From: Clostridium thermobutyricum
Lineage (GTDB): Bacteria; Bacillota; Clostridia; Ch29
NCBI GenBank assembly: GCA_016841565.1
Contig: JAENYX010000012.1
Coordinates: forward strand, 619 to 64,618
DNA length: 64,000 nucleotides
Reading direction: 5' to 3'
The notes under the pieces were generated by a model, which worked only from the letters and a program-made list of their open reading frames with translations, searched no databases and was not told the origin of the DNA. Each line of letters begins with the position of its first letter. The first letter of the stretch is position 1. This document shows, piece by piece, positions 21,838 to 44,414 of the stretch. A program made the position numbers and the translations under genes.

Positions 21838-23001
21838 TTATTTTACAGAAGTTATCCAGTCCACCACAATCCGTTTTAATATAAGAAACAACCCTGCTTT
21901 TTCCACCGTCTTTTCAGCCACCAGATCAGTATTACTTAATACTTCCCCATCCTTCCTGACTATCAGTTCTCCCAGCTTATCCCCTTGTTTTACCGGTGCA
22001 GTAACAGCTGAAGGCAGTACAATCTCTTTCTGCAGATTTTCCTCCTGACCTTTTAGTACCAGTACCTTTATGTCATCCTTCGGTTTTACGTTGACCCATC
22101 TTTCCTTACCTTTGTTTAACTCCAGTTTTTCTATGATATCATCCTTTGTTGCAAGAGGGACGGAATTGTATTTTGAAAATCCGGTATTGAGCAGTTTCTC
22201 TGCTTCCCTGAACCTTATTTCGGAAGTCGGAGAGCCCATAAGTACGGCTATAAGCCTCATATTACCCCTTACGGCAGTTGCCGACAGACAATATTTAGCC
22301 GCATCGGTAGATCCGGTCTTGAGTCCGTCCACACCCTGATATCTTCTGAGCAGCTTGTTGGTATTCACCATAGTAAAGGTGGTAAACCTTCCCTCTTTGC
22401 CTACCAAAATATCCTCCATCCAAATGGTTGTCCAATCGAATATTTTGCTGTGCTTTATCAATTCCCTGGACATAAGAGCCACGTCATAGGCCGATGTGTA
22501 ATGATTTTCATCATGCAGACCATGGGGATTTACAAAGTTGGTATCATTCATTCCCAATTCCTTTGCCCTTTGATTCATAATCCCTACAAATGCTTCTTCG
22601 GTTCCTGCCACATGCTCGGCAAGAGCAACGCTTGCATCGTTACCTGAAGCTACCACAATGGCTTTCAGAAGCTGTTCCACCGTCTTGGTCTCTTCCGGTT
22701 CCATATATATCTGGCTTCCTCCCATACCGGCCGCATTTCTGCTAATAACAACCTGGTCATCCAGTGAAATTTTTCCGTTTTCCAGACTTTCCATGGCAAT
22801 CAGAGCTGTCATAATTTTTGTAACACTTGCAGGAAAGAGCTTTTTATGAGCATCCTGTTCCATAAGAAAGGTGCCGCTGCCGGCATCCATTAAGACAGCA
22901 CCCTGCGCATTTATGGTGATTTCATTGGCATAGGCCGGGTAGGAAAATGCAATCAATAATATTATCAGTAGTATTAATGTGCTAAATATCTTTGTTCTCA
23001 T
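21838..23001 (-). CDS. dacF: D-alanyl-D-alanine carboxypeptidase (PBP5-type; DacF/DacA-like)
   Basis: Signal peptide, then SVTK (SxxK), SGND and KTG motifs. Synteny with pdp, deoB and xerD matches the Bacillus dacF neighbourhood. Confidence 0.8.
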   Translation of the reverse strand: MRTKIFSTLILLIILLIAFSYPAYANEITINAQGAVLMDAGSGTFLMEQDAHKKLFPASVTKIMTALIAMESLENGKISLDDQVVISRNAAGMGGSQIYMEPEETKTVEQLLKAIVVASGNDASVALAEHVAGTEEAFVGIMNQRAKELGMNDTNFVNPHGLHDENHYTSAYDVALMSRELIKHSKIFDWTTIWMEDILVGKEGRFTTFTMVNTNKLLRRYQGVDGLKTGSTDAAKYCLSATAVRGNMRLIAVLMGSPTSEIRFREAEKLLNTGFSKYNSVPLATKDDIIEKLELNKGKERWVNVKPKDDIKVLVLKGQEENLQKEIVLPSAVTAPVKQGDKLGELIVRKDGEVLSNTDLVAEKTVEKAGLFLILKRIVVDWITSVK

Positions 23002-28987: not shown

Positions 28988-29515
28988 TTAATGAGATATT
29001 CCCCGGTTAAGCATCATAATACCGATTATTGTCTTTGCATCCATGATCTCGCCCTTAATAGCCATATCCACTGCCCTTTCAAGACTAATCTCAACCGTAT
29101 CCACCAACTCGTCCTCATCGGGATTTCTTTCGCCGTCCTTAAGCCCGGTCGCAATATACATGTGCATTACTTCGTTTGAAAAACCTGGAGAAGTATAATA
29201 TCTGGATAAATACACCATTTTTTTTGCCCTGTATCCCGTCTCTTCAGCCAGTTCCCTTGCTGCGCAAACCTTTGGGTCTTCCCCTTTTTCCAATTTGCCT
29301 GCAGGAAGCTCAAGCAGTACCTGTTCAACTGCTTTTCTGTACTGCCTCACCAGCACTATGTCTCCGTTGTCCTTTATTGCAATTATTCCCACAGCCCCGG
29401 GATGCTCTACAATTTCTCTCGTAGCGCTGTTGCCGTTTTCCAACACCACATTGTCCAACCTTAAATTAATAATCTTACCCCGGTATATAATTCTACTCTC
29501 AACAGTCTTCTCCAT
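28988..29515 (-). CDS. nudF: NUDIX hydrolase (ADP-ribose pyrophosphatase-like)
   Basis: NUDIX box ..GKLEKGEDPKVCAARELAEETG... Start taken at MEKTVESR. Confidence 0.8.
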   Translation of the reverse strand: MEKTVESRIIYRGKIINLRLDNVVLENGNSATREIVEHPGAVGIIAIKDNGDIVLVRQYRKAVEQVLLELPAGKLEKGEDPKVCAARELAEETGYRAKKMVYLSRYYTSPGFSNEVMHMYIATGLKDGERNPDEDELVDTVEISLERAVDMAIKGEIMDAKTIIGIMMLNRGISH

Positions 29516-29720
29516 ACTTTCCTCTCCCTTCAACATGGAATAAACGGTACAAGTTATGAATATAATATTTAAAACTCTTAAGGAGGTCTGTTGTATGTAC
29601 AAAATCACCACATCAAAGAGGCTTTTTTTGATAGGAAATATGCAGGATATATTGTATTTCCTTGCTCAAATTAGTAAGACCAATGTTTCCCTGAAACAGT
29701 ACCTTGAAGACCAGCCAACT

Positions 29721-30827
29721 TTATTGTAAATATCCAGCCAGAGTTTCGGCGCATGCCCCAATCCCTAAAAAATAATCCCTGTCTTCCTCTATCCCTCTGC
29801 CCATGGTAGTGGTCTTAAGACAATAATCCTCCATAGCGCTTAAGACTGCTTCTCCTTTATTAAACACTACAGAATGCTTTTTATCAATGTTGTATTTCAG
29901 TATCTGACCTTTTATATATCCAAGCTTCCCCTGCTCCAATTCGGGCAGCGGCAGTATGGCTCTGGTTTTTGCAATATCCGCCAGCACCGTTATTGAATGG
30001 TGGCTTATACCCCTGTGCCTTATTCTCTTATCTGCAAAACTTATTCTGGGAAGTGCCACCGGCAGGCCTCCAAGGGTGGTAATCCCGTCTATTATATAAC
30101 CCTGCTCCACCCCTGTGAATCCATATTTGGTAGCCGTACCCGTTATTCCCGGACCCATACCTGTAACCACCAGGTCACATCCGGCCACCTGCTTTGCTGC
30201 AATTATTCCTGTATAAAAATTAACTGTTTCAAAATCTCCGCCAAAGGCATTCCCCGAGGTAACCGTTACATCCAGCAAGCCCTTTTCCTTTAACTCCGGA
30301 ATGGTTTTACTAAGAGCTATTGGCAAAGCAGCTCCATCCGTCATTACATATCCAATTTTTGTCCCCGGCTGCTTTTTTTTAACCAAAGCGCACAGAGGTC
30401 CGAGAACACTATGCAATGGTGCTACAACAACAGGGCTACCCTTAAGACTGGTGAAGCTATTAAATTTGTCATGAAACCTGCTTTGTTGTTCCTCGGCTGC
30501 AAAACATTTGACCTGCATTGGCGTATACCTTAATTTCATTATGTGTCCCTGACCCGACATGTCCAGCGCCGAGTTTTCAAGATTTGCAATCACAAATCCA
30601 TATCCCCCGGTTCCCAGCCCCAGACGCCCGGCAGTAGTGTTGAGCAACACCCTGTCACCTTCTTTGACACAACCCGTCATCGCAGTATATACCAGTGCCA
30701 GGTTAAGGCTATCCTCAACTGCAACCTGGATTTCCTGAAGCCTCTCCCTTTCCATCAGAACCTTGACAACCATTCCCTCTCTAACCCTAATCATCATATT
30801 TGCCCGCTCCCCCTGTTCCCAGTGCAT
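29721..30827 (-). CDS. DUF3866-like conserved protein
   Basis: 368 aa, soluble, Gly-rich segments (..GLGTGGYGFVIANL.., ..TGMGPGITGTATKYGFTG..). The real start may be an internal Met, since the ORF-track start overlaps the upstream gene by 41 nt. Confidence 0.5.
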   Translation of the reverse strand: MHWEQGERANMMIRVREGMVVKVLMERERLQEIQVAVEDSLNLALVYTAMTGCVKEGDRVLLNTTAGRLGLGTGGYGFVIANLENSALDMSGQGHIMKLRYTPMQVKCFAAEEQQSRFHDKFNSFTSLKGSPVVVAPLHSVLGPLCALVKKKQPGTKIGYVMTDGAALPIALSKTIPELKEKGLLDVTVTSGNAFGGDFETVNFYTGIIAAKQVAGCDLVVTGMGPGITGTATKYGFTGVEQGYIIDGITTLGGLPVALPRISFADKRIRHRGISHHSITVLADIAKTRAILPLPELEQGKLGYIKGQILKYNIDKKHSVVFNKGEAVLSAMEDYCLKTTTMGRGIEEDRDYFLGIGACAETLAGYLQ

Positions 30828-31614
30828 CCATATACCTTAAAACCCTGTTCCGGTAAATTACTTTTGTAAAGGAGTACTTTTCGGAAGCCAGCTGCAGTAA
30901 TACCAATAATAAAAGGATTACTGCTTTTTGATGCATCTGCGTTCCAAGACAGCAATATAATCCCAGGACCACTCCTAACACATTGGATCCTGCATCTCCC
31001 ATCATTCCTTTCCTCTTTATATCTACCGGAAGATAAGCTGCAAGGCTTCCGGCCAATGGAGCCAATATATACCCATAGCCTCTCACAGAAAGGAAAGTAT
31101 ATAAAATACCCCAGATAAAAAAGAAGGACTTTATGGCTCTCCCCGGCCTCAGATCCAACAGATTTAACAGATTGGTAAACATGGCAATCATAAAAGTATT
31201 TAATAAACCTTCCAACAAGTTTGATGATATGACGGCCGAAATGGCCGCAGCCGCCAGCCCTCCAACAACAGCCTTCAGCCCACCGGTGGTAAGATTGCCT
31301 TCCAGCAGACATCTTATGTGCCCTCTGAAGCCTTTGATATTTTTTTTGCCAAGCAAATCATCCACAATTCCCACAAACCCCATAACGGAAGCTGCCAGCG
31401 CGTTTATGAGTACCAACTGTGTATCTGTTTCATATATAAATAACATAATGATACTGGCCATCAAAACCACCGGTATAAATATCACTCCCATACCTGTCGG
31501 TACTGCTTCACCACGGAAATTTTTTCTCAAAGCTCCCGAGTTGGTCAACATGCCGGAAATATAGGGCATGAAAAGGTAAGTTGCAGATGCTGTTACGGCT
31601 AGTACTACTACCAT
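30787..31614 (-). CDS. Polyprenyl-phosphate N-acetylhexosamine-1-phosphate transferase (MraY/WecA-like, GT4 family)
   Basis: Polytopic, ..NLLNLLDLRPGRA.. and ..DDLLG.. motifs of the MraY/WecA superfamily. Short at 275 aa. Confidence 0.65.
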   Translation of the reverse strand: MVVVLAVTASATYLFMPYISGMLTNSGALRKNFRGEAVPTGMGVIFIPVVLMASIIMLFIYETDTQLVLINALAASVMGFVGIVDDLLGKKNIKGFRGHIRCLLEGNLTTGGLKAVVGGLAAAAISAVISSNLLEGLLNTFMIAMFTNLLNLLDLRPGRAIKSFFFIWGILYTFLSVRGYGYILAPLAGSLAAYLPVDIKRKGMMGDAGSNVLGVVLGLYCCLGTQMHQKAVILLLLVLLQLASEKYSFTKVIYRNRVLRYMDALGTGGAGKYDD

Positions 31615-32288
31615 TTGTTACTCCTCGCTTCCCGTAGGTAGAACCTGAGTATCTCAAAAAACTGCCTTCCCCTGTGTATAAATCCCTTCAAGTTTCTTTT
31701 GGTTTCACGGTGTGTCATCTTAACCGGCACCTCTATGACGGTGTATCCCATTTTCATGGCTTTAATATTCATGCCTATTTCTGCTGCAAAGCCGTCGGGC
31801 ACAGGCTCAATAGCCAGAAGTACATCCCTTCTGAACGCTCTTTGGCCGGATAAACCCGACTTCAATATTTTGCCCGTACTTGCATACACCAGCAATCGGG
31901 CCAGTTTTTTAACCAACCCGAAACCGCCTTTATTGACTGCAGGCGGGAAAATCCCAATGGTCATATCGGCCTTACCTGTCATGACGGGTTCCACCAGCTT
32001 GGTCAATTCCGAAGAGCTTTTCCCAATATCGGCATCTAGAAAAACTATAATTTCAGAACATACACTGCCTAATCCGTAGTTGATAGCATACCCCTTACCC
32101 CGGTTGCGTTTCAACCTGATCACTTCAGCTCCCAAGTCCGAAGCTACCTGTGCAGTATTATCCCGTGACCCGTCGTCCACAACCACCACTCTGTCGACAA
32201 TTCCGGATGCCTTAATGCCGTAAATAGTGCTGCCAATATATTTTTGCTCGTTAAATGCGGGTATTAATACCGTTACCTGCTGCTTCAA
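31608..32288 (-). CDS. GT2 family glycosyltransferase (Dpm1/polyprenyl-phosphate glycosyltransferase-like)
   Basis: ..VLIPAFNE.. and ..VVVVDDGSRDNT.., DAD-type motif (FLDADI), 226 aa. Confidence 0.8.
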   Translation of the reverse strand: MKQQVTVLIPAFNEQKYIGSTIYGIKASGIVDRVVVVDDGSRDNTAQVASDLGAEVIRLKRNRGKGYAINYGLGSVCSEIIVFLDADIGKSSSELTKLVEPVMTGKADMTIGIFPPAVNKGGFGLVKKLARLLVYASTGKILKSGLSGQRAFRRDVLLAIEPVPDGFAAEIGMNIKAMKMGYTVIEVPVKMTHRETKRNLKGFIHRGRQFFEILRFYLREARSNKW

Positions 32289-32315
32289 ATGCGCACCCTC
32301 CTATCCAAACCTAAC

Positions 32316-33182
32316 CTAATCGGGAATAAGAGCATCTGCCGTATCTTTAACACCGTAATGCCCTTCATTCCCCTGCAGAACTTTTATCAGAGAGTATTGC
32401 CCGATTATATTGTCTATATTGTCCACCGAGGATATTTTAAAATCCTTGTAATGCTTAATACAGGATTGTTTGCAGCCGGTTTTTTCAACTCCCACAACAG
32501 GTATATTGCAGTTTTTTATAGCATTAATAATGGGAATCTCCAGCCTTTCCATCAAATCCGGCTCTCCGGCAAAGCTGTCTCCGGCCAGTATAAAGTAATC
32601 CACCTCTCCGTTATACTCTCCCGATACGTCTATCATTCCCAAATCCTTCAACTGCCCGATAAATTTCTCGTCTCCCCCGGTAAGTATGGCGTTCACCAGT
32701 CTTCCTGACACATATGGGCATAAATCGCTGCTTTCCACAAACTCATCAAGACTATCTCTTAAAACAAGAGTCTTTTGCGGATTCTGACTCATATACTCCT
32801 TCCCGATAAATGTGGTGGATGTAACAACTGCCCCCGCTTTATTCAGCGAATTCATCATACCTGTGTATACCGATTCATTATTGCTTTGAATTATGGCTAT
32901 TTTAAGACCCGCCAGACTATCCTTAATCAAAGCAGGTAATATCCGGCCAGCCAGGTCCCTGTGCATAAGCAGTTCCTTTTCCTTTAGATCAACCATGGAT
33001 TGAAGACTGCCGTTTTCCTGTTTAAGCTCCACAAATCTTAATTCCAATTCGCTTATCAACCCCTGCTGGTGCTCTACGAATATCTCCTGGCCATCCAGAG
33101 TAAAACCAATAAATATACCCACTCCCAGGGCCAGGAAAACCGATGCCATCATAACCACATAGTATCTTATGTTTATTATCAC
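32316..33182 (-). CDS. N-terminally anchored coiled-coil protein (copper-transporter/MctB-like, SteB-like partner of SteA; tentative)
   Basis: Single N-terminal TM helix, coiled-coil, then a soluble domain. Positioned directly downstream of steA, as SteB is in Actinobacteria. Confidence 0.4.
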   Translation of the reverse strand: MIINIRYYVVMMASVFLALGVGIFIGFTLDGQEIFVEHQQGLISELELRFVELKQENGSLQSMVDLKEKELLMHRDLAGRILPALIKDSLAGLKIAIIQSNNESVYTGMMNSLNKAGAVVTSTTFIGKEYMSQNPQKTLVLRDSLDEFVESSDLCPYVSGRLVNAILTGGDEKFIGQLKDLGMIDVSGEYNGEVDYFILAGDSFAGEPDLMERLEIPIINAIKNCNIPVVGVEKTGCKQSCIKHYKDFKISSVDNIDNIIGQYSLIKVLQGNEGHYGVKDTADALIPD

Positions 33183-33194
33183 ATATCACTCTCC

Positions 33195-34373
33195 TTAAAA
33201 GCCAAGCATTAGCCTCAGACGGATTGACAAAAGCCTATATAATTGTTGAAGAGGCGGCGACATTGCTCCCACAACTACTATAGGTATCATGGCAGCCAAA
33301 ACCAGCCCGACTATATGCTTAGTCTTTACGCTTTCTCTGTAAAGCTTGTTAACGCCTTTTGCATCAACCAGCTTTTCCCCAACCTTGAGGCGCGTCAGAA
33401 AAGTACTCCCCATCCCCTTTCTCCCCTTCTCCAGAAAATCTATCATGCTTGAATGGGCGCCTACTGCTACTATAAGCTCTGCCCGGTTTTCATAGGCCAG
33501 AAGCATGGCAATATCTTCACTGGTTCCGGGACAGGACAGTATTTGGGCCTTCAGTCCCAGCCGGTTTATCCTGTCCATCCCGGGGGCCATTCCGTTCAGA
33601 TATGCATGCACAATAATTTCTCTGCAATTCCTGAGGGCTTTGTCGCTTACACTGTCCATATCGCCTATTATTATGTCCGGAACCAGCCCGAATTCCAGAA
33701 GTGCATCTCCTCCTCCGTCCACTCCTATAAGTATTGGCTTTACTTCTTCTATATATGAGCGTATGGTATTTAAATCATTTCTGTAATCCTTTCCTCTTAC
33801 CACCACCAGAGCATGTCTTCCTGCAAACACCGTTCTGACCGGAGGAAGTTTTATTTGTCCAAGTATGAACTCCTTCTCTTTCTTTGCATACTCCAGTGTA
33901 TTATCAATGAAGCCGTCCAGCTCGCTCTCCAGGTTCTGCCTTGCCAATTCCATTTTTCTTTCAACCCTTTTCATGTCCATTAAATGACCTCTTCCCACCA
34001 GGACTCCGTCCATATATATTTCATTATTTTTTATCTCCAGTATATCTCCGTCCTTTACCCTTTCCATCAGCTCGGGACCTGTGTTGTCAACCAGCGGTAT
34101 CCCTTCCCGGCAAAGCAGTTTGGGACCCAGATTGGGATATCTGCCGCTTATAGATGGCTCAATATTTATTACCGCCTTTGCCTTTGCATTTATTAGGGAT
34201 AATGCCCCCAGCTCATCAAGATCCCTGTGACATATCACTCCTATCTGTCCGGGATTTAAGCGGCGGACCAGGTTCTTTGTTCTACTGTCCACAATTGCCT
34301 TTGATTTTATATGCATAAATACACCAGCTTTCGTCATTGCCTGGTTGGTATAGTTATTATTTGTTTTTCTCAA
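33195..34373 (-). CDS. steA: Putative cytokinetic ring protein SteA (TPK-like domain)
   Basis: Thiamine-pyrophosphokinase-like core (..LIGVDGGGDALLEFGLVPDIIIGDMDSV..) plus a C-terminal TM helix, as in SteA. Confidence 0.65.
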   Translation of the reverse strand: MRKTNNNYTNQAMTKAGVFMHIKSKAIVDSRTKNLVRRLNPGQIGVICHRDLDELGALSLINAKAKAVINIEPSISGRYPNLGPKLLCREGIPLVDNTGPELMERVKDGDILEIKNNEIYMDGVLVGRGHLMDMKRVERKMELARQNLESELDGFIDNTLEYAKKEKEFILGQIKLPPVRTVFAGRHALVVVRGKDYRNDLNTIRSYIEEVKPILIGVDGGGDALLEFGLVPDIIIGDMDSVSDKALRNCREIIVHAYLNGMAPGMDRINRLGLKAQILSCPGTSEDIAMLLAYENRAELIVAVGAHSSMIDFLEKGRKGMGSTFLTRLKVGEKLVDAKGVNKLYRESVKTKHIVGLVLAAMIPIVVVGAMSPPLQQLYRLLSIRLRLMLGF

Positions 34374-34447
34374 TAAAAAATTGCCCCATAAGGGACAATT
34401 TTTGCTTTCCTACAAATTTTTTTTTAATTTCTTATTTGCCTGACCTA

Positions 34448-35692
34448 TTATTTCAAAATTGGATCCTCGATTAGAAGCTTTCTTACATTCATAATGAATA
34501 AGTCGCTCTCAGGTCCATTGTAAGCCAATCTGGCTCCATCGGTTGACAGGTAGAATTCCTTGGAAGGAAGCCCTCCTATCAGCTTCAATGTACCGTCGGT
34601 AATACTGAAACTCCATAGCGTATAATAAGTCCAGTCATTGCCATAGCTTGGTTCTGCCATCTCGGTAGCCAAATACAGGTATTTTCCTTCTTTATCCCAT
34701 TTATGAGCGACAACATAAACATTTTTGGGCATATCAACGGTAATACGTTTTCCGGAGCTCCTGTGTTCAATATATGCATTTTTTGTATATACAAACCCTA
34801 TTTCATTTGTATCGCTGGTCTGAACAAACTGGTATCCGGTCATAGAGCTTGTTTTTTGATTGTATTGCTCTATATATTTGTTGGCCTTTTCCATACTAAT
34901 TTCAGTTTTATTCTTGTCCATATCCATCAGGTAAAAATCCTCGCCGTCAATCCCACTTACAATAAGAGTGGCTTCATCCTTCCAGCCTTCGATTTTGGCT
35001 GTTTCACCATGTCTGTATACCCCCGACAGGCTGTTTCTGTTGTAAATACGATACTCTATCAACTGTCCATTCTGTGAATCCACCGCAACTACACCCTGTA
35101 TAAGTTCGTTTCCCGCCCGGTTAATATTCTCGCTATCCCCGAAGAAAAAAATATAAGCTAGTTTATATCCATATTGGTCTTCAAAAAGGGCCATGCAGTC
35201 CATTGTGCTTGTGAAATCAGTTTCCATGTGGTCCCAAGCGTATGAAAGGGCAGTCATATAATCTATCGCCGGTTTGAGGGTTTTTGATTGGATGCTGAAT
35301 AATACATTGTCCGGCTCGAAATATTCTTTGTACTTTTTTTCAACGGCCAGCACTTTGTAATAAGCCGGCGCTAAATTGTGAAAGGGGTCTGTTCTTTCCA
35401 TACCCGGTTTTGGCTTAAGGTCAATAATAATACTCCCGCTGCCTGAAAGTACTATGCTTTCAATATCGGCATTATAAGGCAGGTTTACAGCAAAATAAGC
35501 ACTGTTGTTGTCTTCTCTCAGCATTTTAACCTGCAATTCCAATGGTCCTATTTGATCCTTTATTTCCCCGAAATTGTCCTGCGGCAGACTGCTAAATTCT
35601 ATTTCTCCCTTAATAACAGGCTTTGTTAAATTCCTGCACCCCGACAAAAGGATAACAGTCAGCAAAACTACTACCAGCATTCTCTTTTTCAA
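34448..35692 (-). CDS. Lipoprotein of unknown function
   Basis: Signal peptide with lipobox LLSGC, then a 390-aa Tyr/Trp/Asp-rich repetitive beta-rich domain. Confidence 0.5.
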   Translation of the reverse strand: MKKRMLVVVLLTVILLSGCRNLTKPVIKGEIEFSSLPQDNFGEIKDQIGPLELQVKMLREDNNSAYFAVNLPYNADIESIVLSGSGSIIIDLKPKPGMERTDPFHNLAPAYYKVLAVEKKYKEYFEPDNVLFSIQSKTLKPAIDYMTALSYAWDHMETDFTSTMDCMALFEDQYGYKLAYIFFFGDSENINRAGNELIQGVVAVDSQNGQLIEYRIYNRNSLSGVYRHGETAKIEGWKDEATLIVSGIDGEDFYLMDMDKNKTEISMEKANKYIEQYNQKTSSMTGYQFVQTSDTNEIGFVYTKNAYIEHRSSGKRITVDMPKNVYVVAHKWDKEGKYLYLATEMAEPSYGNDWTYYTLWSFSITDGTLKLIGGLPSKEFYLSTDGARLAYNGPESDLFIMNVRKLLIEDPILK

Positions 35693-35726: not shown

Positions 35727-36284
35727 CTAATCATTCATATGTATCATTTCTGGAAAATTGGCTGTTATCTCCTTTACCAACTGACAATCTCCCGTATTCT
35801 TCATAACCGACAGCATCTCCATTATAAGAACAGGATTGGTATCAGTATTGATTTTGCCTGCTTTGAACAGCCGGTCACAGCACTGCGCTGCTCCCTGGCT
35901 GTCTCTGGTTCTGTTTTTGCAGACCAGAACTGCAGGAAGCAGTGTGTCCTCCATATCAGGCCTAAGCTCGATTATAGAATTAAGTTTTTTTAATGCCTTG
36001 TCGTATCTGGCCCTATGGTAATTTTCCTGGGCTTGTTTATACAGCCAGGCCGGCCTTTCTTTGGCCTTGCCAATCATCATTAAAGTTAAGTTTATTAAAA
36101 ACACGGCCAAACAAATGGGCAATATTATTGCAAGGGGCCCTCCGGTCCCGGCAACCCCAATAAATACTCCAAAAAAGCTCAGCCAAAGAATAATCAACTT
36201 TTGAGTGTATCCCCGGGGAATCAACTCTTCCGGCGGCAATACCGGCAGTATTGGGTTGTATCGTCCTTTTCGGGCTTTGCTCAT
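35727..36284 (-). CDS. Membrane protein with TPR-like C-terminal region
   Basis: Two TM helices followed by a helical repeat region. Start taken at MSKARKG, because the longer start falls inside repeat copy A. Confidence 0.4.
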   Translation of the reverse strand: MSKARKGRYNPILPVLPPEELIPRGYTQKLIILWLSFFGVFIGVAGTGGPLAIILPICLAVFLINLTLMMIGKAKERPAWLYKQAQENYHRARYDKALKKLNSIIELRPDMEDTLLPAVLVCKNRTRDSQGAAQCCDRLFKAGKINTDTNPVLIMEMLSVMKNTGDCQLVKEITANFPEMIHMND

Positions 36285-36292
36285 AATGCTGC

Positions 36293-36413
36293 CTCCATTA
36301 CCTGTCATTTAAGAGGGCGGAGCCCGAAGAATCTGACTTGAAAATGGACATAAGATCCTTCGCCTGGCTCAGGATGACACGTTAACAGGCGTAAAACCTT
36401 AAGCACGTTATAT
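36293..36413. repeat. ~120-bp repeat element, copy A (inverted relative to copy B at 43021..43139)
   Basis: The core CCTGTCATTTAAGAGGGCGGAGCCCGAAGAATCTGACTTGAAAATGGACATAAGATCCTTCGCCTGGCTCAGGATGACACGTTA..CTTAAGCACGTTATATA matches the reverse complement of 43021..43139. Only a handful of mismatches separate the copies. Confidence 0.85.
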
Positions 36414-36462: not shown

Positions 36463-38211
36463 TTAACCATTTTTCCTAACTTTAGCCCAGCTGTCCTTCA
36501 ATGAAACAATCCGGTTGAATACCGGTTTGCCGTCCTTCCATCGACCGGTATCGGCGCAAAAGTATCCAAGCCTTATAAATTGATACCTGCAACCCGGCTT
36601 TGCCTTCCCAAGCTCCGGTTCCAGCATGCAGGAAACCAGCCTTTGCAGCGAATTCTTGTCCAGCCTCGATTGAAAATCAATACCTTCTTCGCCCTCCGGG
36701 TTTTCGTCAGGGAAAAGATGCTCATAAAGACGGACTTCCGCCTGGATGGCATGGTCTGCAGACACCCAGTGGAGCGTACCTTTGACCTTCCTCCCACTGT
36801 TGGGCCCTCCACTTTTTGAATCGGGATCGTAGGTACAGTGTATTTCGGTAACAGTTCCGGAAGCTTTATCCTTTACCACATCAACACATTTAATTATGTA
36901 AGCATTTTTCAAACGCACTTCTTTACCCGGAGTGAGCCTGAAAAACTTTGGAGGCGGTACCTCAAAAAAATCGTCCCGTTCAATATACAATTCCCGCGAA
37001 AAGGGCAGCTTCCTGGTTCCCAATTCCGGACTTTCGGGATTATTTTCCGTCTCCAGGTATTCTACTTTATCTTTTGGGTAATTATCTATCACAAGCTTGA
37101 CCGGGTTTAATACTGCCATAACCCGGGGCGATTTTGCTTTCAAGTCCTCACGAATACAGTGCTCCAGCAGCGCAATATCGACAGTGCTGTTGCTCTTGGC
37201 AACACCTATTCGCTCACAAAAATCCCGTAAGGCTTCGGGTGTATATCCGCGCCTTCTTAAGCCTGATATTGTAGGCATTCGCGGATCATCCCAACCGTCC
37301 ACATAACCTTCCTCTACCAGCTTTCTGAGCTTTCTTTTGCTCATAACTGTATTTGTCAGGTTAAGCCGGGCAAACTCTATCTGCTTGGGGTGCACTTCCG
37401 GGTCCACATTTTCTATGGTCCAGTCATACAGCGGACGGTGATCTTCAAACTCCAAAGTGCATATGGAATGGGTAATCCCTTCAATTGCATCCGAAAGCGG
37501 ATGGGCATAATCGTACATCGGATATATGCACCAGTCATCGCCCGTTCTATGGTGGGTGGTCCTCATTATTCTGTACAGCACCGGGTCCCTCATATTAAGA
37601 TTTGACGATGCCATGTCTATCTTGGCCCTCAATACCCGAGAACCGTCGGGAAACTCTCCCTTCCTCATTCTCATAAAGAGGTCCAGGTTTTCTTCCGCCG
37701 GTCGGTCCCGGTAAGGGCTGTTTTTACCTGGCTCTGTAAGTGTACCCCGGTATTCTCTTATTTCATCTGCACTCAAATCGCATACGTAGGCTTTTCCTAT
37801 TTTTATAAGCTTGACAGCATATTCAAACAGCTGCTCGAAATAATCGGAGGCGTAGTATTCCCTGTTGCCCCAGTCAAAACCCAGCCACTTTACGTCATCC
37901 TTGATCGAGTCAACATATTCTACTTCCTCTTTACTGGGATTGGTATCGTCAAACCTCAGGTTGCATAACCCTCCGTTTCTTGCCGCAATACCAAAATTCA
38001 GGCATATGGACTTTGCATGACCAATATGAAGGTAGCCGTTGGGCTCGGGGGGAAAACGGGTATGTACTCGCCCGTTATAAACGTTTGTTTCCAAGTCCTG
38101 GTTAATAATGGACTGGATAAAATTAGCCGGCTGATTTGTTGATTCCTGGACTTGGGTCTTATCCCCCTGGCAGGTGTTCAACTTGTCGTCTTCCCTGGAA
38201 TTTGCCACCAT
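36463..38211 (-). CDS. glnS: Glutamine--tRNA ligase
   Basis: HIGH (..YLHIGHAKS..) and VMSKR motifs, GlnRS-type N-terminus, 582 aa. Confidence 0.9.
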
Positions 38212-38344
38212 TTTTTTGAATTTCCTCCCCTATGGTTTAGTCTTAAATATGCACCCCTATGGGTATTCACTAAATCTATATTTAACAGCCATCCCAATGT
38301 ATCCCTTTAAATATAATATACATACATCAGGCCATTTTCAATAA

Positions 38345-39232
38345 TTATTCCCCAAATCTCATCAGATGGTTCTTTTCAAATGTCCATTCGGGGGTAACCA
38401 GCGTATCCCCGAAATCCACCCGATACCATGGACTTATAGATTTGTCAGCATTATTTTTTAAGATATGAATATCCTGGGCCGGCATGTAGCTCTGGGCCAA
38501 CATAAACACTTTTTCGCCGGTTCGACTGTTGACTGCCATATCTATTATGATAACACAATGTCCCGGGCTTCCCCCCTGGATAAACACATCTCCTATCTCC
38601 ATATCCGAAACCGCAGCTTGCTGAAGCTCCTTTGACAGTGAAAGGGTGCCTGCATAAGAGAACACCATATCAAGGTATTTTCTGAAGCTGTCGTAGTCTT
38701 CCGAATACCCGGCGCCGCCAACCCAACTTACATTATTGCCGTTTACAGAAATCCTGTTCCCCTGCATCCATTTTTCATACTGCGCATTAAAACCGTTTGT
38801 AAAATTGAAATGAATATTCCGGTACTGCTTCTGCTTATACAAATACTCAGCCCGCAGCCTCATTACCGCATCGGCACACTGCTGTAAATCCCTGTCTCCA
38901 ATTTCCATATCCACTACTGCAATGTGTACGTCTCTTGCTTTTTCCCGCCCGTTGTAATGCAAAACCTTTGAACCGTGAGGTTTAAGAGGTAAGTTTCTCA
39001 GATAATGGGCAAAGGAATTGGCGTCGACGTGGAGCCTTTCGAAGCCTTCCGGTACCATTATCCGCTCCACTACAGTGTTACCCTGGGGAGTTATCATCTG
39101 GCGCTGCACTGTTCCGGCACTGTTTTTATAACCGTTTTCCTCCGTCCGGGGCATACCGCTTCCGGAGTGGTCTGGCTGCTCTGTGCATGCCGTCAGCATA
39201 ATAGCAATTAACACAATAAATATTTTTTTCAA
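38345..39232 (-). CDS. Lipoprotein of unknown function (DUF4846-like, tentative)
   Basis: Start taken at TTG (39230-39232) with a GGAGG RBS 4 nt upstream, giving LKKIFIVLIAIMLTAC (lipobox LTAC). The ORF-track extension MEVDGY.. lacks an RBS. Confidence 0.45.
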   Translation of the reverse strand: MKKIFIVLIAIMLTACTEQPDHSGSGMPRTEENGYKNSAGTVQRQMITPQGNTVVERIMVPEGFERLHVDANSFAHYLRNLPLKPHGSKVLHYNGREKARDVHIAVVDMEIGDRDLQQCADAVMRLRAEYLYKQKQYRNIHFNFTNGFNAQYEKWMQGNRISVNGNNVSWVGGAGYSEDYDSFRKYLDMVFSYAGTLSLSKELQQAAVSDMEIGDVFIQGGSPGHCVIIIDMAVNSRTGEKVFMLAQSYMPAQDIHILKNNADKSISPWYRVDFGDTLVTPEWTFEKNHLMRFGE

Positions 39233-39312
39233 TTTGCCTCCCCTTTCCCCGAACGGGCAGTTAAGAAATACCGGATACCGGCTGCACCGGTATCCATCTA
39301 CTTCCAATATGT

Positions 39313-39615
39313 CTATACGTTATAGTCCAGTACCACGCGCGAATCTGTAATGTCGGTAACAAACCCTGCAACTTCTACATGAGCGGGGTGCTTCTGGTAT
39401 ACTTCCAGTGCGTCCAGGTCCCGGAATTCCGAGTATAAACCCACATCATACGCAGCACCGCTTTGGTTAACATTTATGCCTACCTCAATATGCAGTATCT
39501 CCGGTATCTTATCCTTTAACCCTTCAATCCGCTCCTTCATTAGCTCCAAGTTTTCCTGTTTATCCTTGCCGCTGGCAGAATCCTTAGCCTTCCAAAGCAC
39601 AATGTGTTTTACCAT
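39313..39615 (-). CDS. Dabb-family stress-responsive alpha/beta-barrel protein
   Basis: 100 aa with a ferredoxin-like fold signature (..HIVLWKAKD..). Ends in a weak terminator-like hairpin. Confidence 0.65.
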   Translation of the reverse strand: MVKHIVLWKAKDSASGKDKQENLELMKERIEGLKDKIPEILHIEVGINVNQSGAAYDVGLYSEFRDLDALEVYQKHPAHVEVAGFVTDITDSRVVLDYNV

Positions 39616-39650
39616 AGAAAATTCTCCTCCCTCTCCAACAACTGGTACTA

Positions 39651-39974
39651 TTATACTACATTTTTGCTTTTAATATGAGCCTTTTCATCATTTCCGGGGG
39701 AAAGCGGTATTCGCAATAGTTTCAGTTTCTCTTGTCTCGATAGCTGTTTTATACTATACTCTCTCTGCATTGCTTCCTTCTTTGTACCAAATGCTTCCGA
39801 ATGCCTCAATACCACCGGAAGCCTGGCCCGTGTGCATTTACCTCCCTTACCTTGGTTGTGCTGGGCCAGCCGCCTTTCAACATCGGTTGTCCACCCGGTA
39901 TACAGCGACCCGTCATTGCATTCCAGTATGTATACATAATACACCTTCCGGCACTCCTTTCCACTGTCCTTCAA
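39651..39974 (-). CDS. GIY-YIG nuclease family protein (UPF0213-like)
   Basis: ..[30 protein letters not shown].. GIY-YIG motif, about 100 aa. Confidence 0.7.
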
Positions 39975-40129
39975 ACGATGCAGGGGTTAAGAAGTTGAAA
40001 AGGAAGCAAAAGGACCTTCCCCTGCTTCCATTGACATCATATTGCACCAGTATTATTATTATATTGCACCTTTTTACATATTGTCCTTTTATAATATTAT
40101 ATCATACCGAAAATTGGAGGTAAATACAC

Positions 40130-40714
40130 ATGCCGAATTTTACAGCATTTTTATCCTATGTCCTAGTCACCACCTTCACCCCCGGCCCCAATAACATCAT
40201 GTCCATGTCAAACGCCAGCCGGTACGGTTTCAAAAAAAGCATCATGTTCAATGTGGGCGTCTTTATTGGCTTTTTTGTAATCATTTCCCTGTGCAGCATG
40301 TTCAGCATGGCGCTTTTTAACCTTATACCAACCATCAGGCCGTTTATGACCTATATCGGAGCCGGCTACATACTGTGGCTGGCATGGAAAACTTACAGCA
40401 GCAAACCCCATAGCACCGACAACAGCCATAATCGTACAAACACCTTTACGGCGGGCCTTCTCCTGCAGTTCGTAAACCCCAAGGTTATTCTTTACGGAAT
40501 TACGCTTGTTTCAACCTTCATAGTACCCTATTACAAGTCCCCGCCTGCGCTTACGGGCTTTGCCGTTTTACTGGCCTTCACCGCCTTTGTATCCACCTGC
40601 TGCTGGGCACTGCTGGGCTCGGTTTTCCAGATATTCCTGGCAAGGAACAACAGAGCAGTTAACGCCATTATGGCTTTGCTGCTTGTCTACTGTGCGGCTT
40701 CGCTGCTACTTTAA
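40130..40714 (+). CDS. LysE/RhtB family amino-acid exporter
   Basis: 194 aa, 6 TM helices, N-terminal ..TPGPNN.. LysE signature. One of only two plus-strand genes. Confidence 0.8.
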   Translation: MPNFTAFLSYVLVTTFTPGPNNIMSMSNASRYGFKKSIMFNVGVFIGFFVIISLCSMFSMALFNLIPTIRPFMTYIGAGYILWLAWKTYSSKPHSTDNSHNRTNTFTAGLLLQFVNPKVILYGITLVSTFIVPYYKSPPALTGFAVLLAFTAFVSTCCWALLGSVFQIFLARNNRAVNAIMALLLVYCAASLLL

Positions 40715-40725
40715 CTGGTTCACAC

Positions 40726-40758
40726 GGAACCAGTGGAAACCAGGGGGAAACCAGGGGG
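40726..40758. repeat. Short tandem repeat GAAACCAGGGGG x2, preceded by a partial copy
   Basis: GGAACCAGTG-GAAACCAGGGGG-AAACCAGGGGG directly 3' of the LysE stop, within a convergent intergenic region. Confidence 0.6.
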
Positions 40759-40912
40759 ACGGTTCTTGTGGTTATCTTATCTCAGCAAAACTTTACTTCC
40801 TGCCTCAAAACCTAATTTTCTTTGATTCTTTAAACCAAAATAGATTGTGCATTCGGTTATCAAGTCAAAGTACCGGCATCCCACATAACACTGCCCGGAT
40901 TCCCATTAATCT

Positions 40913-41572
40913 CTATAATGAAACATCCTGAAACCAGTAGCCGTCGTGGAAGTACTGCTCTTTAAGCTGGATATTAACCGGGAAAGAAAATGTAGGGCCG
41001 TCGATTACAACGGTATGAAATTCCCCTTCCTCTCCCGAAGCATCCACCCCTGCTTTTTCAATTTCCCTGATAATATCTTCATCCAAGATTTTTCCTAAAA
41101 ACCGTTTATCCAGCACCCCGTCCTTGACGGCTATTATTACAGCCTTGAAGCCCTCATTTACAAACTCATCCAATAATTCTCTGCGTTTTTCCTTCCAAAG
41201 AGGATGAAAGGGTTTTATACCGGCATAACAACATACCCTTTCCACCCACTGCCGGTGCTGGTCAATATCTATATCGCCAAAAACCCCGGCCTCTATTCCC
41301 TCAGCCTTAAGACCGTAAAGAGCGGATATAAATTCCCTTTCGTAATCATCCCACGTTGCAGAACGGGTAATTACCGGAAGCCCCAAAGCCTGGGCCTGCT
41401 TCCCTATTAACGAAATGTGGAGGGCATGGGACCGTGACCTTTCTCCTCCCTCTGAAAACATAGTAAAAAGGAAGTGCGGACTGCCCCCTTCCCGTATTGC
41501 CCGGTATAATGCCAGGCATGAATCCTTCCCGCCGCTCCAGGAGCAAAAAAAACTGGAACTATTTATGGTCAT
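40913..41572 (-). CDS. PP-loop ATP pyrophosphatase of the Dph6/MJ0570 (DUF71) family
   Basis: SGGKDS PP-loop near the N-terminus, 219 aa. Confidence 0.7.
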   Translation of the reverse strand: MTINSSSFFCSWSGGKDSCLALYRAIREGGSPHFLFTMFSEGGERSRSHALHISLIGKQAQALGLPVITRSATWDDYEREFISALYGLKAEGIEAGVFGDIDIDQHRQWVERVCCYAGIKPFHPLWKEKRRELLDEFVNEGFKAVIIAVKDGVLDKRFLGKILDEDIIREIEKAGVDASGEEGEFHTVVIDGPTFSFPVNIQLKEQYFHDGYWFQDVSL

Positions 41573-41665
41573 AAAGCCTTTACCCCTTATATGCTAAATT
41601 TTCTTATGGCACTTCTGCCTGTCTGTTGTGTATTATCATTGTTTCTGTAATAAGGCCGGCCTTTC

Positions 41666-41794
41666 CTATTTTTTGCCTTCCAATTCCTTAACCTTCTTTT
41701 CCAGGGCTTCCACCCTGTCTTTCAGGCTGTAATCTTTGTTCAGGGCAACAATGTGAAAAACTACTGCAATTATTAGAATAATAAACCCCATCAT
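41666..41794 (-). CDS. 43-aa small membrane/coiled-coil protein (unannotated by the >=60-aa ORF track)
   Basis: MMGFIILIIAVVFHIVALNKDYSLKDRVEALEKKVKELEGKK. One TM helix plus a charged heptad-like tail. A GGCCGGCC hairpin follows the stop. Confidence 0.3.
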   Translation of the reverse strand: MMGFIILIIAVVFHIVALNKDYSLKDRVEALEKKVKELEGKK

Positions 41795-41845
41795 GCTTAC
41801 ATCCTTTCTTCCGGCAATGCTTATAATACACCTGTTATTTTGCCG

Positions 41846-42505
41846 TTATAGATTTTGCTTGAACACACCCAGCCAAGCAGCAAAGGCCAAAATGGCAATT
41901 GCTGCTGCAAATTCACTTATGCCCCTCAACCGGCTGGCCTTTGTACTCTCATTTACTCTCTCTTTCATATCCAGAACAATTTCTTCGAAATAGTATACAC
42001 TGCCAAACCTTATAAAGACCAGCTCGAAGTTTTTGCCGTTTCCCGCCCTCTGATTCATCCTGACAGAGGCATCATACTGATCCAGGAATATCTCGGTATC
42101 CATAGCATGGGGGCTTTCTTCCTTTTTTCTGTATTCCAATCCATACTTTTCCAACGTCTGAAACAGTATTGTTTCAAGGTCGGCTTTGGAAATATTGTGA
42201 ACTGTATACTTTTTACCCGTGGAAAAATTTCTGTAAAAGGCGAATATAACCAATAATAACAGTATTCCCAGTAATTTTACGGCAAGTTTTTCATCACTAT
42301 TCGTACCAAGCTCCCATATTCCAATAAAGTCATACAACAACACTGCTAAACCCGCACCTGCCGAAAAAAAGTTCAAGAGCTTGGGCTCGTGGTAAAAGTT
42401 TTTTTCCCTTCGCCTTTTGATGCCAAGGTATATACACTGTATTAGGTAGATAATGCCCATTACACGATATATAGCAAGTTTTCCGCTGTCCATTGATACA
42501 CTCAC
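41846..42505 (-). CDS. Membrane protein of unknown function
   Basis: 219 aa, 3-4 TM helices N-terminally, then a soluble C-terminal region ending in another TM helix. Confidence 0.4.
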   Translation of the reverse strand: MSVSMDSGKLAIYRVMGIIYLIQCIYLGIKRRREKNFYHEPKLLNFFSAGAGLAVLLYDFIGIWELGTNSDEKLAVKLLGILLLLVIFAFYRNFSTGKKYTVHNISKADLETILFQTLEKYGLEYRKKEESPHAMDTEIFLDQYDASVRMNQRAGNGKNFELVFIRFGSVYYFEEIVLDMKERVNESTKASRLRGISEFAAAIAILAFAAWLGVFKQNL

Positions 42506-42573
42506 TTTCTTAAATTTAGTCGTTCATATTATATATGTTTTGACGCAAATTCTCCGGTTTTTGTTGCCTGTGT

Positions 42574-42930
42574 TTAACCTCCAATCAGCTTTTCCTTTGC
42601 CTCAGATACCGAATTAACAAAAAATATTCTACCACTCTTATTAATCTCATTAATAAAAACTTTTTTCGCGATATATTTAGAAAAATCACCTATAACGGCA
42701 AGCCGAACGTCATAATCTGCAAATTTATGTATTATCTCTTCTGCCATTCCCCTATCCATATCAAAAATATCAGGACTGATGTTCTTTTCCCTAACAATTA
42801 TTTTCTTTGCACCCTGATAATAGCATTCAGACATCATATCCAAAGCATCCTGGACATTATTAATAATTATGCCGCTTGCCACCACTTCTGCTATAAAGGT
42901 CCCCTTTGTGCTTATCAAATTGATTCTCAT
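42574..42930 (-). CDS. Small conserved hypothetical protein (DUF4180-like, tentative)
   Basis: 118 aa, soluble. Repeat copy B sits in its upstream region. Confidence 0.4.
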   Translation of the reverse strand: MRINLISTKGTFIAEVVASGIIINNVQDALDMMSECYYQGAKKIIVREKNISPDIFDMDRGMAEEIIHKFADYDVRLAVIGDFSKYIAKKVFINEINKSGRIFFVNSVSEAKEKLIGG

Positions 42931-43020
42931 GCTTTACCCCCTCAATTTTGGAGTAATGCCGTGTTTATGGCCCGGCTGTCTGAGTTTACGACATTTTTCA
43001 AGTACTTCTGCGAGTACTAT

Positions 43021-43139
43021 ATATAACGTGCTTAAGACTTTACATCTCCTAACGTGACATCCTGAGCCAAGCGAAGGATCTTATGTCCATCTTCAAGTCA
43101 GATTCTTCGGGCTCCGCCCTCTTAAATGACAGGTAGAGG
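43021..43139. repeat. ~120-bp repeat element, copy B (inverted relative to copy A)
   Basis: Reverse complement matches 36293..36413. Overlaps the 3' end of the GDPD pseudogene. Confidence 0.85.
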
Positions 43140-43990: not shown

Positions 43991-44368
43991 TTCTTCTAAC
44001 AACAAATCATCATTTGCTTTGAAGTTGTCGCTTCCCATTAATTTGATTGTAGCAGACTACGGCCTACTTTTCCATAGTACATGGTTCATTTTATTGCAGC
44101 CAACTCACAATGCCGGATGGCAGTAGAAGAACAGTCTACGTTGTTTTTTGTGATGTTTATTCCACAAATCCAGTAGTGAAAGTTATTTTTTATGGCAGCA
44201 GTCGGTCTGTTCCATTTGACTGCGATATTTAATTCATTATCGATAGATAAAATAATGTCTGCAATCCGTTTTACCATCTCCTCCTGTTTTGTATATCGGT
44301 ACCTTATGCTATGGAGCCGTCCGTCGGCGGCCGGTCAGACACAGTACCTGTTCCCCTGTCTTGGGAGC

Positions 44369-44414
44369 AGTAAAAAGCACTCCGTTCCGGCAGATGCTAC
44401 AGGTACGGAGTGCT
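44369..44414 (-). terminator. spo0A intrinsic terminator
   Basis: AGCACTCCGT-(19 nt)-ACGGAGTGCT 10-bp stem, 7 nt after the spo0A stop, followed by TTTT on the minus strand. Confidence 0.6.

Follow-up and report, generated by a model that had tools for sequence, protein, structure and literature searches.

A group of five genes around a steA homologue on contig JAENYX010000012.1 of Clostridium thermobutyricum (assembly GCA_016841565.1) is the subject of this analysis. The window, i.e. the whole stretch of DNA analysed, comprises 64,000 nucleotides (nt), and positions given without a locus number refer to it. The genes follow each other on the minus strand and code for SteA, a SteB/MctB-like protein, a family 2 glycosyltransferase (GT2), a small membrane protein assigned to the polyprenyl-phosphate N-acetylhexosamine-1-phosphate-transferase superfamily (PNPT) and a DUF3866 protein. 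A first-pass annotation of the sequence had described them as a co-directional five-gene cluster. The open reading frames (ORFs) lie where it placed them, and searches of Pfam, NCBIfam and the Protein Data Bank (PDB) together with fold comparisons confirmed SteA, SteB/MctB, GT2, the MraY/WecA superfamily and DUF3866.

Gene starts and borders of the operon

Going from steA to the DUF3866 gene, the five genes are separated by gaps of 12 and 27 nt and then overlap by 7 and 11 nt. They are one operon, which begins with the steA start at 34316 and ends with the stop of DUF3866 at 29721, and they are translationally coupled. The 7-nt overlap between the GT2 and PNPT genes had been given in the first-pass annotation and stands, whereas the overlap of about 40 nt which it gave for PNPT and DUF3866 does not. 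The DUF3866 gene had been taken as 29721-30827, but homologues as well as the GenBank gene call place its start at the ATG at 30797, with GGGGGAG just before it, and the overlap with the PNPT stop is thus 11 nt.

The longest steA ORF (33195-34373) starts with a TTG at 34373, which is part of the U-tract belonging to a terminator-like hairpin at 34403-34376 (12-bp stem, -14.9 kcal/mol, z-score -3.55, none of 200 shuffled sequences equally stable). The ATG at 34316 is the SteA start in the family model NF040608 and in all homologues, and it gives a protein of 373 amino acids (aa), the length reported for SteA of C. difficile. The start is therefore most likely the ATG at 34316. The hairpin looks like the terminator of the gene upstream of steA. 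Downstream of the cluster no strict terminator was found before the end of spoIIM, and a simple promoter scan was uninformative (27 sites where 19 are expected by chance).

Table 1. Positions of the cluster genes and of the features at its borders
Feature	Position	Strand	Remarks
steA	33195..34316	-	likely 373 aa from ATG 34316; longest ORF reaches TTG 34373
steB (MctB family)	32316..33182	-	N-terminal membrane helix, coiled coil, extracytoplasmic domain; 12 nt past steA end
GT2, soluble, GT-A fold, DPM1/ArnC/GpgS-like	31608..32288	-	without membrane segment; 27 nt past steB end
minimal PNPT, MraY/GPT fold	30787..31614	-	275 aa, about 9 membrane helices
DUF3866 protein	29721..30797	-	358 aa; PNPT stop overlapped by 11 nt; GGGGGAG ribosome-binding site
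nudF-type NUDIX hydrolase (NDP-sugar/ADP-ribose type)	28988..29515	-	PF00293, NDPSase_N; conserved downstream neighbour
terminator-like hairpin and U-run	34376..34403	-	between upstream lipoprotein-like gene and steA; 5' border of unit

Conservation of the gene order

A DUF3866 profile was used to scan one genome per species. At least 600 stretches matched, and the best 80 loci were examined (loci are designated by L and a number). The counts of conservation use those 63 of the 80 which have at least 5 kb upstream of the DUF3866 gene. The genes for SteA, SteB, GT2 and PNPT lie co-directionally upstream of DUF3866 in 49 of these 63 loci, and three more loci carry SteA, GT2 and PNPT (52/63). The spacing is tight, with medians of 15.5, 12, 5 and 20.5 nt along the cluster. 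The conservation of the neighbourhood, which the first-pass annotation had named as a check of its proposal, is borne out by these counts. The cluster is found in Peptostreptococcaceae (Clostridioides, Romboutsia, Terrisporobacter), Tissierellia, Alkaliphilus/Natronincolaceae, Syntrophomonadaceae, Thermincola, Desulfofundulus and Thermoanaerobacterales, and an arrangement which recurs in dozens of species is far beyond chance.

The usual gene order is dxs-tlyA-nadK-argR-recN-spoIVB-spo0A-[cluster]-nudF-spoIIM-xerD-deoB, and a NUDIX gene is found at most 3 kb downstream of DUF3866 in 53 of 68 loci. The window shares this setting, but about 10 kb of lineage-specific genes part spo0A (44421-45215) from steA.

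A gene for a PepT/YqjE-like M20 peptidase lies between PNPT and DUF3866 in 24 of the 80 loci (L032:8831-9979, L035:8820-9959, L065:8830-9981, L083:10494-11618 and 20 further loci). It was considered as a sixth member of the cluster and not included: it is absent from the window and from the Peptostreptococcaceae, and is possibly a gene of the conserved backbone. In one metagenome-assembled genome (MAG) of the Thermoanaerobacterales the place between PNPT and DUF3866 is taken by an L,D-transpeptidase with YkuD and PG_binding_1 domains (L068:9279-9977).

SteA and SteB

SteA matches the family model NF040608 (division_SteA) with 511.3 bits against a cut-off of 150, over residues 22-389 of the long ORF. 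The C-terminal membrane helix is recognised by PF12555 (E value 4e-17), and TPK_catalytic (PF04263) is matched as well. The closest solved structures are the SteA cores of Mycobacterium tuberculosis (9hmy, E 4.7e-63) and Corynebacterium glutamicum (9hmz, 2e-46). The SteA profile also matches an MptE-type HPPK, an archaeal pyrophosphokinase (8sd5, E 6.6e-7), and a TPK (3l8m, 8e-5). SteA is thus predicted to consist of two cytoplasmic domains, with a nucleotide pocket like that of pyrophosphokinases of the TPK/MptE type, and of a membrane helix at the C-terminus.

All 54 clostridial SteA sequences have the pocket motifs DGGxD, GDMDS and GTSED without variation, and in the profile alignment these line up with 'GIDRGTLILL...GDFDSISD' of TPK and with the MptE pyrophosphokinase. 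At the GDMDS position the solved actinobacterial SteA proteins are degraded, with GDPDQ in M. tuberculosis and GNPTG in C. glutamicum. Since the motifs are intact on one side and degraded on the other, the clostridial SteA looks more enzyme-like than the characterised ones. SteA of C. glutamicum binds GDP and UDP, not ADP (PMC12977500).

The neighbouring protein, annotated earlier as SteB/MctB-like, matches PF11382 over its full length (model positions 1-306 of 306, 112.4 bits against 25.6, E 4.5e-32). With the single sequence no match to M. tuberculosis SteB was found in the PDB and a profile was needed; the profile of clostridial SteB reaches M. tuberculosis SteB/MctB (9m9z, 1.4e-12) and Cg1604 (8au6, 3.7e-11), and 9hle was also matched. 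SteA and SteB are shown to be true homologues of the actinobacterial SteAB transmembrane complex. A hydrolase domain which could mark a RipA-type NlpC/P60 partner of SteB was not found in the Pfam scans of the window, which did not cover every ORF.

SteB is not always present. Three loci have a SteA of 339-360 aa without the C-terminal membrane helix (L030:7437-8519, L044:1629-2678 and L075:7463-8482), and SteB is absent from these loci also when a profile hidden Markov model is used. In all three steA overlaps the start of the GT2 gene, and PNPT and DUF3866 follow. A fourth locus, L070, has an anchored SteA and no SteB, with GT2 directly after SteA and then PNPT and DUF3866. Because SteB is missing in some lineages, the conserved core is SteA, GT2 and PNPT (with DUF3866). 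The loci without SteB link the SteA cytoplasmic domain with the enzymes and not with SteB only.

The GT2 glycosyltransferase

The GT2 had been called Dpm1-like, and this is in keeping with its best relatives. It matches PF00535 with 89 bits against 23.3 (E 4e-25), and among the solved structures the best matches are Pyrococcus Dol-P-Man synthase (5mlz, 1.9e-11), GpgS (3.5e-11) and ArnC (8e-10). The DXD motif is DAD in 'FLDADIG' and is aligned to the DAD of 5mlz. The best NCBIfam models are AglJ, GpgS and PpgS, and all of them are below cut-off; the scores against the equivalog cut-offs are 111/325 for AglJ, 57.7/370 for PpgS, 43.7/529 for ArnC and 72.6/262 for GpgS. By these scores the GT2 is not a member of any named polyprenyl-phosphate sugar synthase equivalog. 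Fusions joining the GT2 or the PNPT to other parts were not found among the best 120 homologues of each.

A minimal PNPT with a DLRPGR motif

The assignment of the fourth protein as MraY/WecA-like has a marginal sequence match, to PF00953 with 29.2 bits against a cut-off of 27. A search of the PDB with the single sequence gave no match at E values up to 10 and a profile was needed; the profile matches MraY only (E 2e-4). The AlphaFold2 (AF2) model has a pLDDT of 91.9, and a Foldseek search of the PDB with it finds DPAGT1 and MraY only, with a query-normalised TM-score (TMq) of 0.55-0.67 and a probability of 1.00, the next match having an E value above 0.5.

Two of the motifs of the superfamily, DD and GDxGSN, are well kept. 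D85, D86 and D207 are invariant, DD..G is found in 176 of 177 sequences and GD.G[SA]N in all 177. For transmembrane helix 5 (TM5) the canonical motif is NxxNxxDGxDGL with two Asp; all 177 sequences have NxxNxxDLRPGR in its place, and none of the 57 locus sequences checked has the canonical one. The DLRPGR segment aligns to NAVNLTDGLDGL of MraY. The string HHH is absent from 120 of 120 database homologues. The lengths are 265-292 aa with about nine helices, and the alignment with MraY stops near residue 229 of 275. The loop-E/HHH region of MraY is missing, and the protein is not an MraY proper (about 320-360 aa). The modelled fold together with two of the three Asp-containing motifs places it in the PNPT superfamily. 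Judged by its sequence it is a distinct minimal subfamily of about 275 aa with DLRPGR. About 4,300 database proteins belong to this subfamily, and they carry no functional name beyond 'MraY family glycosyltransferase'. The substrate of such a PNPT could widen the known range of the superfamily.

The DUF3866 protein

The DUF3866 protein is soluble and matches its family over the full length (PF12982, 425.7 bits, E 1.5e-127, model positions 2-317 of 318). The databases hold 6669 homologues, and 1899 clusters at 50% identity were counted. The AF2 model (pLDDT 89.2) has a small N-terminal beta-barrel and an alpha/beta domain, and the motif with the highest conservation, GHIMKLRYTPxQ, is in a loop which is modelled with low confidence. 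No close solved structure was found for it (best TMq 0.34). At many positions of the protein Arg, His, Asp or Ser is invariant, and this suggests that its substrate may be anionic and phosphorylated.

A LOG/SLOG assignment was considered and kept as a lead only; mSLOG was seen with an E value of 0.0056 in one of 16 members in a weak Pfam scan, and Foldseek gave no LOG/SLOG. In one locus DUF3866 is fused in frame to NDPSase_N and NUDIX domains in a protein of 562 aa (L084:7001-8689), but this is a single contig and a sequencing error is possible. In the same locus the cluster lies directly after recN, and spoIVB, spo0A and spoIIM are absent from it.

The counterpart in C. difficile

The genes CDR20291_1053-1057 are essential genes of unknown function in C. 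difficile and their products are listed as pyrophosphokinase (373 aa), exported protein (291 aa), GT2 (230 aa), glycosyltransferase (274 aa) and DUF3866 protein (355 aa) (PMC12548448). Order and domains are the same as in the window, where the proteins have 373, 288, 226, 275 and 358 aa, and the downstream nudF, the membrane protein in the spoIIM position and xerD are also the same. The match was made by sizes and annotation (Table 2 and supplement of PMC12548448), and sequence identities were obtained via the Clostridioides loci L007 and L011, where the proteins in the same order are 55-56, 27-30, 48-49, 40-42 and 51% identical to those of the window. C. difficile differs from the window in the 10 kb of other genes which the latter has between spo0A and the cluster.

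In the transposon sequencing of C. difficile no insertions were found in 1053, 1054, 1055 and 1056, which have 130, 117, 76 and 111 TA sites, and two were found in the 122 TA sites of 1057, the DUF3866 gene; each of the five is classified as essential (PMC12548448). nudF (1058), with 46 insertions and 57 TA sites, is non-essential, and so are the flanking genes spoIVB, spo0A, 1059 and xerD (PMC12548448). The essential island in C. difficile has exactly the borders of the five-gene cluster. Because nudF is dispensable, the requirement for DUF3866 is not a polar artefact, and nudF is probably not part of the essential core. Knockdown of 1053-1056 by CRISPR interference (CRISPRi) gives 'short, phase bright, swollen, chaining' cells (PMC12548448), a phenotype worded like that of the knockdowns of the PS-II teichoic acid. 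B. subtilis has no orthologue of 1053-1056, whereas the backbone neighbours have orthologues there (PMC12548448).

The study assigned no function to 1053-1057 and did not identify 1053/1054 as SteA/SteB (PMC12548448). A literature search under the C. difficile 630 tags CD1215-1219 and CD630_12150-12190 gave nothing relevant, and the cluster plays no part in a paper on C. difficile glycolipids (UgtA/UgtB/HexSDF). In C. difficile the five counterparts belong to the few essential genes without an assigned pathway and with no Bacillus orthologue, which makes them candidate narrow-spectrum drug targets. Recognition of 1053/1054 as SteA/SteB links this unassigned essential pathway to a structurally characterised cell-separation machine.

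In the window the spacer between DUF3866 and nudF (29516-29720) is 205 nt long, compared to a median of 15 nt elsewhere, and it may hold an internal promoter or terminator. GenBank annotates an antisense ORF of 44 aa in this spacer (L081:3069-3203).

Comparison with known systems

The SteAB-RipA system of Mycobacteriales (Rv1697/Rv1698 in M. tuberculosis; SteA/SteB in C. glutamicum) has the homologous steA and steB genes next to each other, with the same topology, in which SteA is anchored at its C-terminus and SteB at its N-terminus, the latter followed by a coiled coil. The position is also the same, with tlyA-nadK-recN upstream and a NUDIX gene and xerD downstream, and depletion leads to chaining in both, on the clostridial side in the C. 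difficile counterpart. The clostridial system differs in having steAB in one operon with GT2, minimal PNPT and DUF3866, in being essential in C. difficile, and in keeping the full pyrophosphokinase Asp motif of SteA, where M. tuberculosis and C. glutamicum have a degraded one. Furthermore, some clostridial lineages can dispense with SteB and with the anchor of SteA, and no RipA-like partner was identified.

The second group of relatives is formed by PNPT initiators and the glycosyltransferase which follows them (MraY, WecA/TagO, GPT/DPAGT1; WecA with WbbL, TagO with TagA). Common to these and the cluster are the fold, the DD and GDxGS motifs, the adjacent glycosyltransferase and, in C. difficile, a depletion phenotype which resembles that seen when wall teichoic acid (PS-II) is depleted. 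In contrast to them the PNPT of the window has about 275 aa, lacks loop-E/HHH, has an invariant DLRPGR in place of DGxDGL and is barely above the Pfam threshold, and the cluster is without a flippase, a polymerase and an LCP ligase. The GT2 has its best sequence matches in polyprenyl-phosphate GT2s (DPM1, ArnC, GtrB, AglJ, PpgS) and GpgS and shares the GT-A domain with DAD (DXD); it differs from them in having no transmembrane or clear anchoring segment and in equivalog scores far below the cut-offs. The cluster may act as a cross between the SteAB system of Actinobacteria and a PNPT-plus-glycosyltransferase starter of a linkage unit.

What is already known is the cluster as an entry in a list of essential genes (PMC12548448) and the presence of SteAB in Clostridia (PMC12977500). 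The latter paper, a 2026 mBio study on the structure of SteAB from M. tuberculosis, notes that steAB lies just downstream of spo0A in some Clostridia and suggests a role in sporulation; the glycosyltransferases are not mentioned (PMC12977500). The grouping of the five genes in one SteA-centred glycan operon, the intact pyrophosphokinase motif of SteA, the core without SteB and the DLRPGR subfamily of PNPT appear to be new.

A model for the cluster

The model which we slightly favour over all others taken together postulates that the five genes make up a single envelope pathway, which works at the cytoplasmic face of the membrane on a polyprenyl-linked glycan and is tied to SteA; the nature of the product is deduced. 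At the cytoplasmic membrane face the PNPT would take a phosphorylated head group from a donor activated by a nucleotide and load it onto polyprenyl phosphate. The GT2, which has no anchor and would dock on a membrane partner, would add a sugar or make a polyprenyl-phosphate sugar, and DUF3866 would make or modify a phosphorylated or nucleotide-linked precursor. The pocket of SteA would bind, and possibly turn over, a UDP- or GDP-containing substrate or product of the cluster enzymes. Where SteB is present, SteA would relay its state through SteB across the membrane to cell-wall hydrolysis for separation, as in the SteAB-RipA model. Loss of the pathway would remove an essential envelope glycolipid or glycopolymer or trap the lipid carrier, and would in this way give envelope and chaining defects. 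The core of SteA, GT2 and PNPT makes the model testable, in that the ligand of SteA might be a UDP- or GDP-containing intermediate of the adjacent glycan pathway.

A polyprenyl-linked glycan pathway coupled to a SteAB-type module had been suggested in the first-pass annotation, and homology, fold and synteny support it, in agreement with the genetics of C. difficile. A further point in its favour is L059, where the PNPT lies near a DPM1-like GT2 and a GT-C glycosyltransferase of the PMT_2 family, a classic set of donor and user of lipid-linked sugars.

Several points weigh against the model. The product, donors and acceptors of GT2, PNPT and DUF3866 are predictions, and the cluster encodes no flippase, polymerase or ligase. 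A contact of SteA with GT2 or PNPT is a proposal only. The second Asp and loop-E/HHH serve the use of nucleotide sugars in MraY/GPT, and a PNPT without them may have a substrate which is not a UDP-sugar, or may not be a transferase of the MraY/GPT type. The GT2 scores equally well for GpgS, which has a soluble acceptor, and for Dol-P-Man synthase. CRISPRi in C. difficile is polar and upstream transposon insertions could be polar on DUF3866, so the requirements for the individual genes are not separated. Furthermore, the region is part of an ancient conserved backbone (tlyA-nadK-recN ... nudF ... xerD), and adjacency alone therefore overstates the functional linkage; PNPT and DUF3866 are parted by the M20 peptidase gene or larger inserts in many loci, and 8 of the 63 loci have none of the four partners within 9 kb upstream of DUF3866.

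It should be noted that a more far-reaching form of the model can be formulated, which we regard as unlikely. It holds that SteA of Clostridia has enzymatic activity, of the pyrophosphokinase type or in another handling of nucleotides, and together with the minimal DLRPGR-type PNPT, the GT2 without anchor and DUF3866 builds an undescribed essential lipid-linked envelope molecule, that Firmicutes and Actinobacteria had this pathway in their common ancestry, and that the actinobacterial SteAB-RipA is its reduced pseudo-enzymatic remnant.

Alternative explanations

The main rival of the single-pathway model supposes two unrelated functions side by side in an ancient gene order, SteAB being only a regulator of a cell-separation hydrolase, as in Mycobacteriales, and GT2, PNPT and DUF3866 serving a glycopolymer or glycolipid pathway of their own. 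The flanks dxs-tlyA-nadK-argR-recN-spoIVB-spo0A ... nudF-spoIIM-xerD-deoB are indeed common to Bacillus and partly to Actinobacteria, actinobacterial SteAB functions without adjacent glycosyltransferases, and L059 and L066 have a PNPT, in L059 also a GT2, with no SteA or SteB in the 21-kb locus of either. An accidental neighbourhood does not, however, explain why SteA stays directly upstream of GT2-PNPT, overlapping in three of the four loci, despite loss of SteB or of the anchor, nor why exactly the five genes are essential together in C. difficile, where the backbone neighbours are not. Spacers of 5-16 nt are kept across distant families, and B. subtilis retains the backbone neighbours and lacks orthologues of 1053-1056. 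We consider two unrelated functions rather unlikely. In another proposal, which we find quite improbable, the PNPT is a specialised MraY paralogue for a variant peptidoglycan lipid intermediate, and DUF3866 and the M20 peptidase handle the peptide or nucleotide precursor. This would fit with MraY as the sole sequence-level PDB match of the PNPT profile, with the database name 'MraY family', with the M20 peptidase gene directly upstream of DUF3866 in the 24 loci and the L,D-transpeptidase in L068, and with a C. difficile phenotype which is also like that of peptidoglycan-precursor knockdowns. It is at variance with the lack of the C-terminal loop-E/HHH and of the second TM5 Asp and with a fold which matches GPT equally well; Mur-ligase genes are not found in the cluster, the GT2 partner is left unexplained, and the M20 peptidase is missing in the window and in Peptostreptococcaceae loci and is perhaps a backbone gene.

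Only a very small probability is given to a GpgS-like GT2 which acts on a soluble phosphorylated acceptor (e.g. to make a glycosyl-glycerate as in the repeat of the C. difficile lipoteichoic acid, LTA), with the PNPT moving the unit onto the lipid. GpgS matches are as strong as those to Dol-P-Man synthase, some orthologues are called GpgS in UniRef, the GT2 lacks a membrane segment and the altered, Arg-rich PNPT motif could suit a donor other than a UDP-sugar; the GpgS model scores are nevertheless all far below the cut-off (72.6 against 262 here). LTA of the C. difficile type, with a repeat of N-acetylglucosamine (GlcNAc) and glyceric acid, is known in Peptostreptococcaceae, whereas the cluster is conserved far beyond this family. 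For C. difficile itself, GlcNAc and glyceric acid are constituents of the LTA repeat (PMC13558421) and would speak for such an acceptor. A function in sporulation, e.g. in the spore envelope or cortex, is hinted at by spoIVB and spo0A upstream and spoIIM downstream and was suggested for clostridial SteAB (PMC12977500). We have rejected it as highly improbable, since the cluster is vegetatively essential in C. difficile, where spo0A, spoIVB and the gene in the spoIIM position are dispensable, and since in L084 the cluster follows recN in a locus which lacks spoIVB, spo0A and spoIIM; in the window it lies 10 kb from spo0A.

Neighbouring genes and unusual loci

Two MAGs labelled Actinomycetes and Slackia (L059:404-9917 and L066:196-10004) have the order PNPT-PyrG-M20-DUF3866-NUDIX-XerD, in which the position of PyrG resembles the mycobacterial order steAB-pyrG-nudix-xerD. 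Upstream in L059 are genes for a GT1-type enzyme, a GT2 (33% identical to that of the window), a PMT_2 GT-C and a membrane protein of 765 aa without a Pfam match. L066 has a membrane protein of 749 aa built like the latter, and an MGDG-synthase-like glycosyltransferase. In two loci of Firmicutes/Desulfotomaculum a conserved protein of 220-225 aa takes the NUDIX position just downstream of DUF3866 (L037:11095-11757 and L055:11405-12082); the copy in L037 has no Pfam match.

Contigs labelled Lutibacter sp., Caulobacteraceae and, for P0459, Solirubrobacterales (L006, L061 and L083) have clostridial-type sporulation contexts with spoIIM, and in L083 also spo0A and spoIVB. The labels seem to stem from errors in the binning or labelling of public MAGs. 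The 'Solirubrobacterales' GT2 orthologue was accordingly not accepted as an actinobacterial case, since a contig with spo0A, spoIVB and spoIIM is from a Firmicute or mislabelled.

In most relatives steA comes directly after spo0A. The interval between the two genes in the window (36463-44400) codes for GlnS, a DUF4846 protein, a LysE exporter on the plus strand, a Diphthami_syn_2 protein and a protein of 219 aa without a family match. Closer to steA, on the minus strand, are genes for a lipoprotein-like protein of 414 aa (34448-35692) and a membrane protein of 193 aa (35727-36308); both are without a match in Pfam or NCBIfam, and of the relatives with that flank only the closest one (L002) has kept them. 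Elsewhere in the window there are two tandem M20-family peptidase genes (15864-18313), which are not of the PepT-like type adjoining DUF3866 in relatives, and two paralogues of D-Ala-D-Ala carboxypeptidase of family S11 (8917-10041 and 21838-23001).

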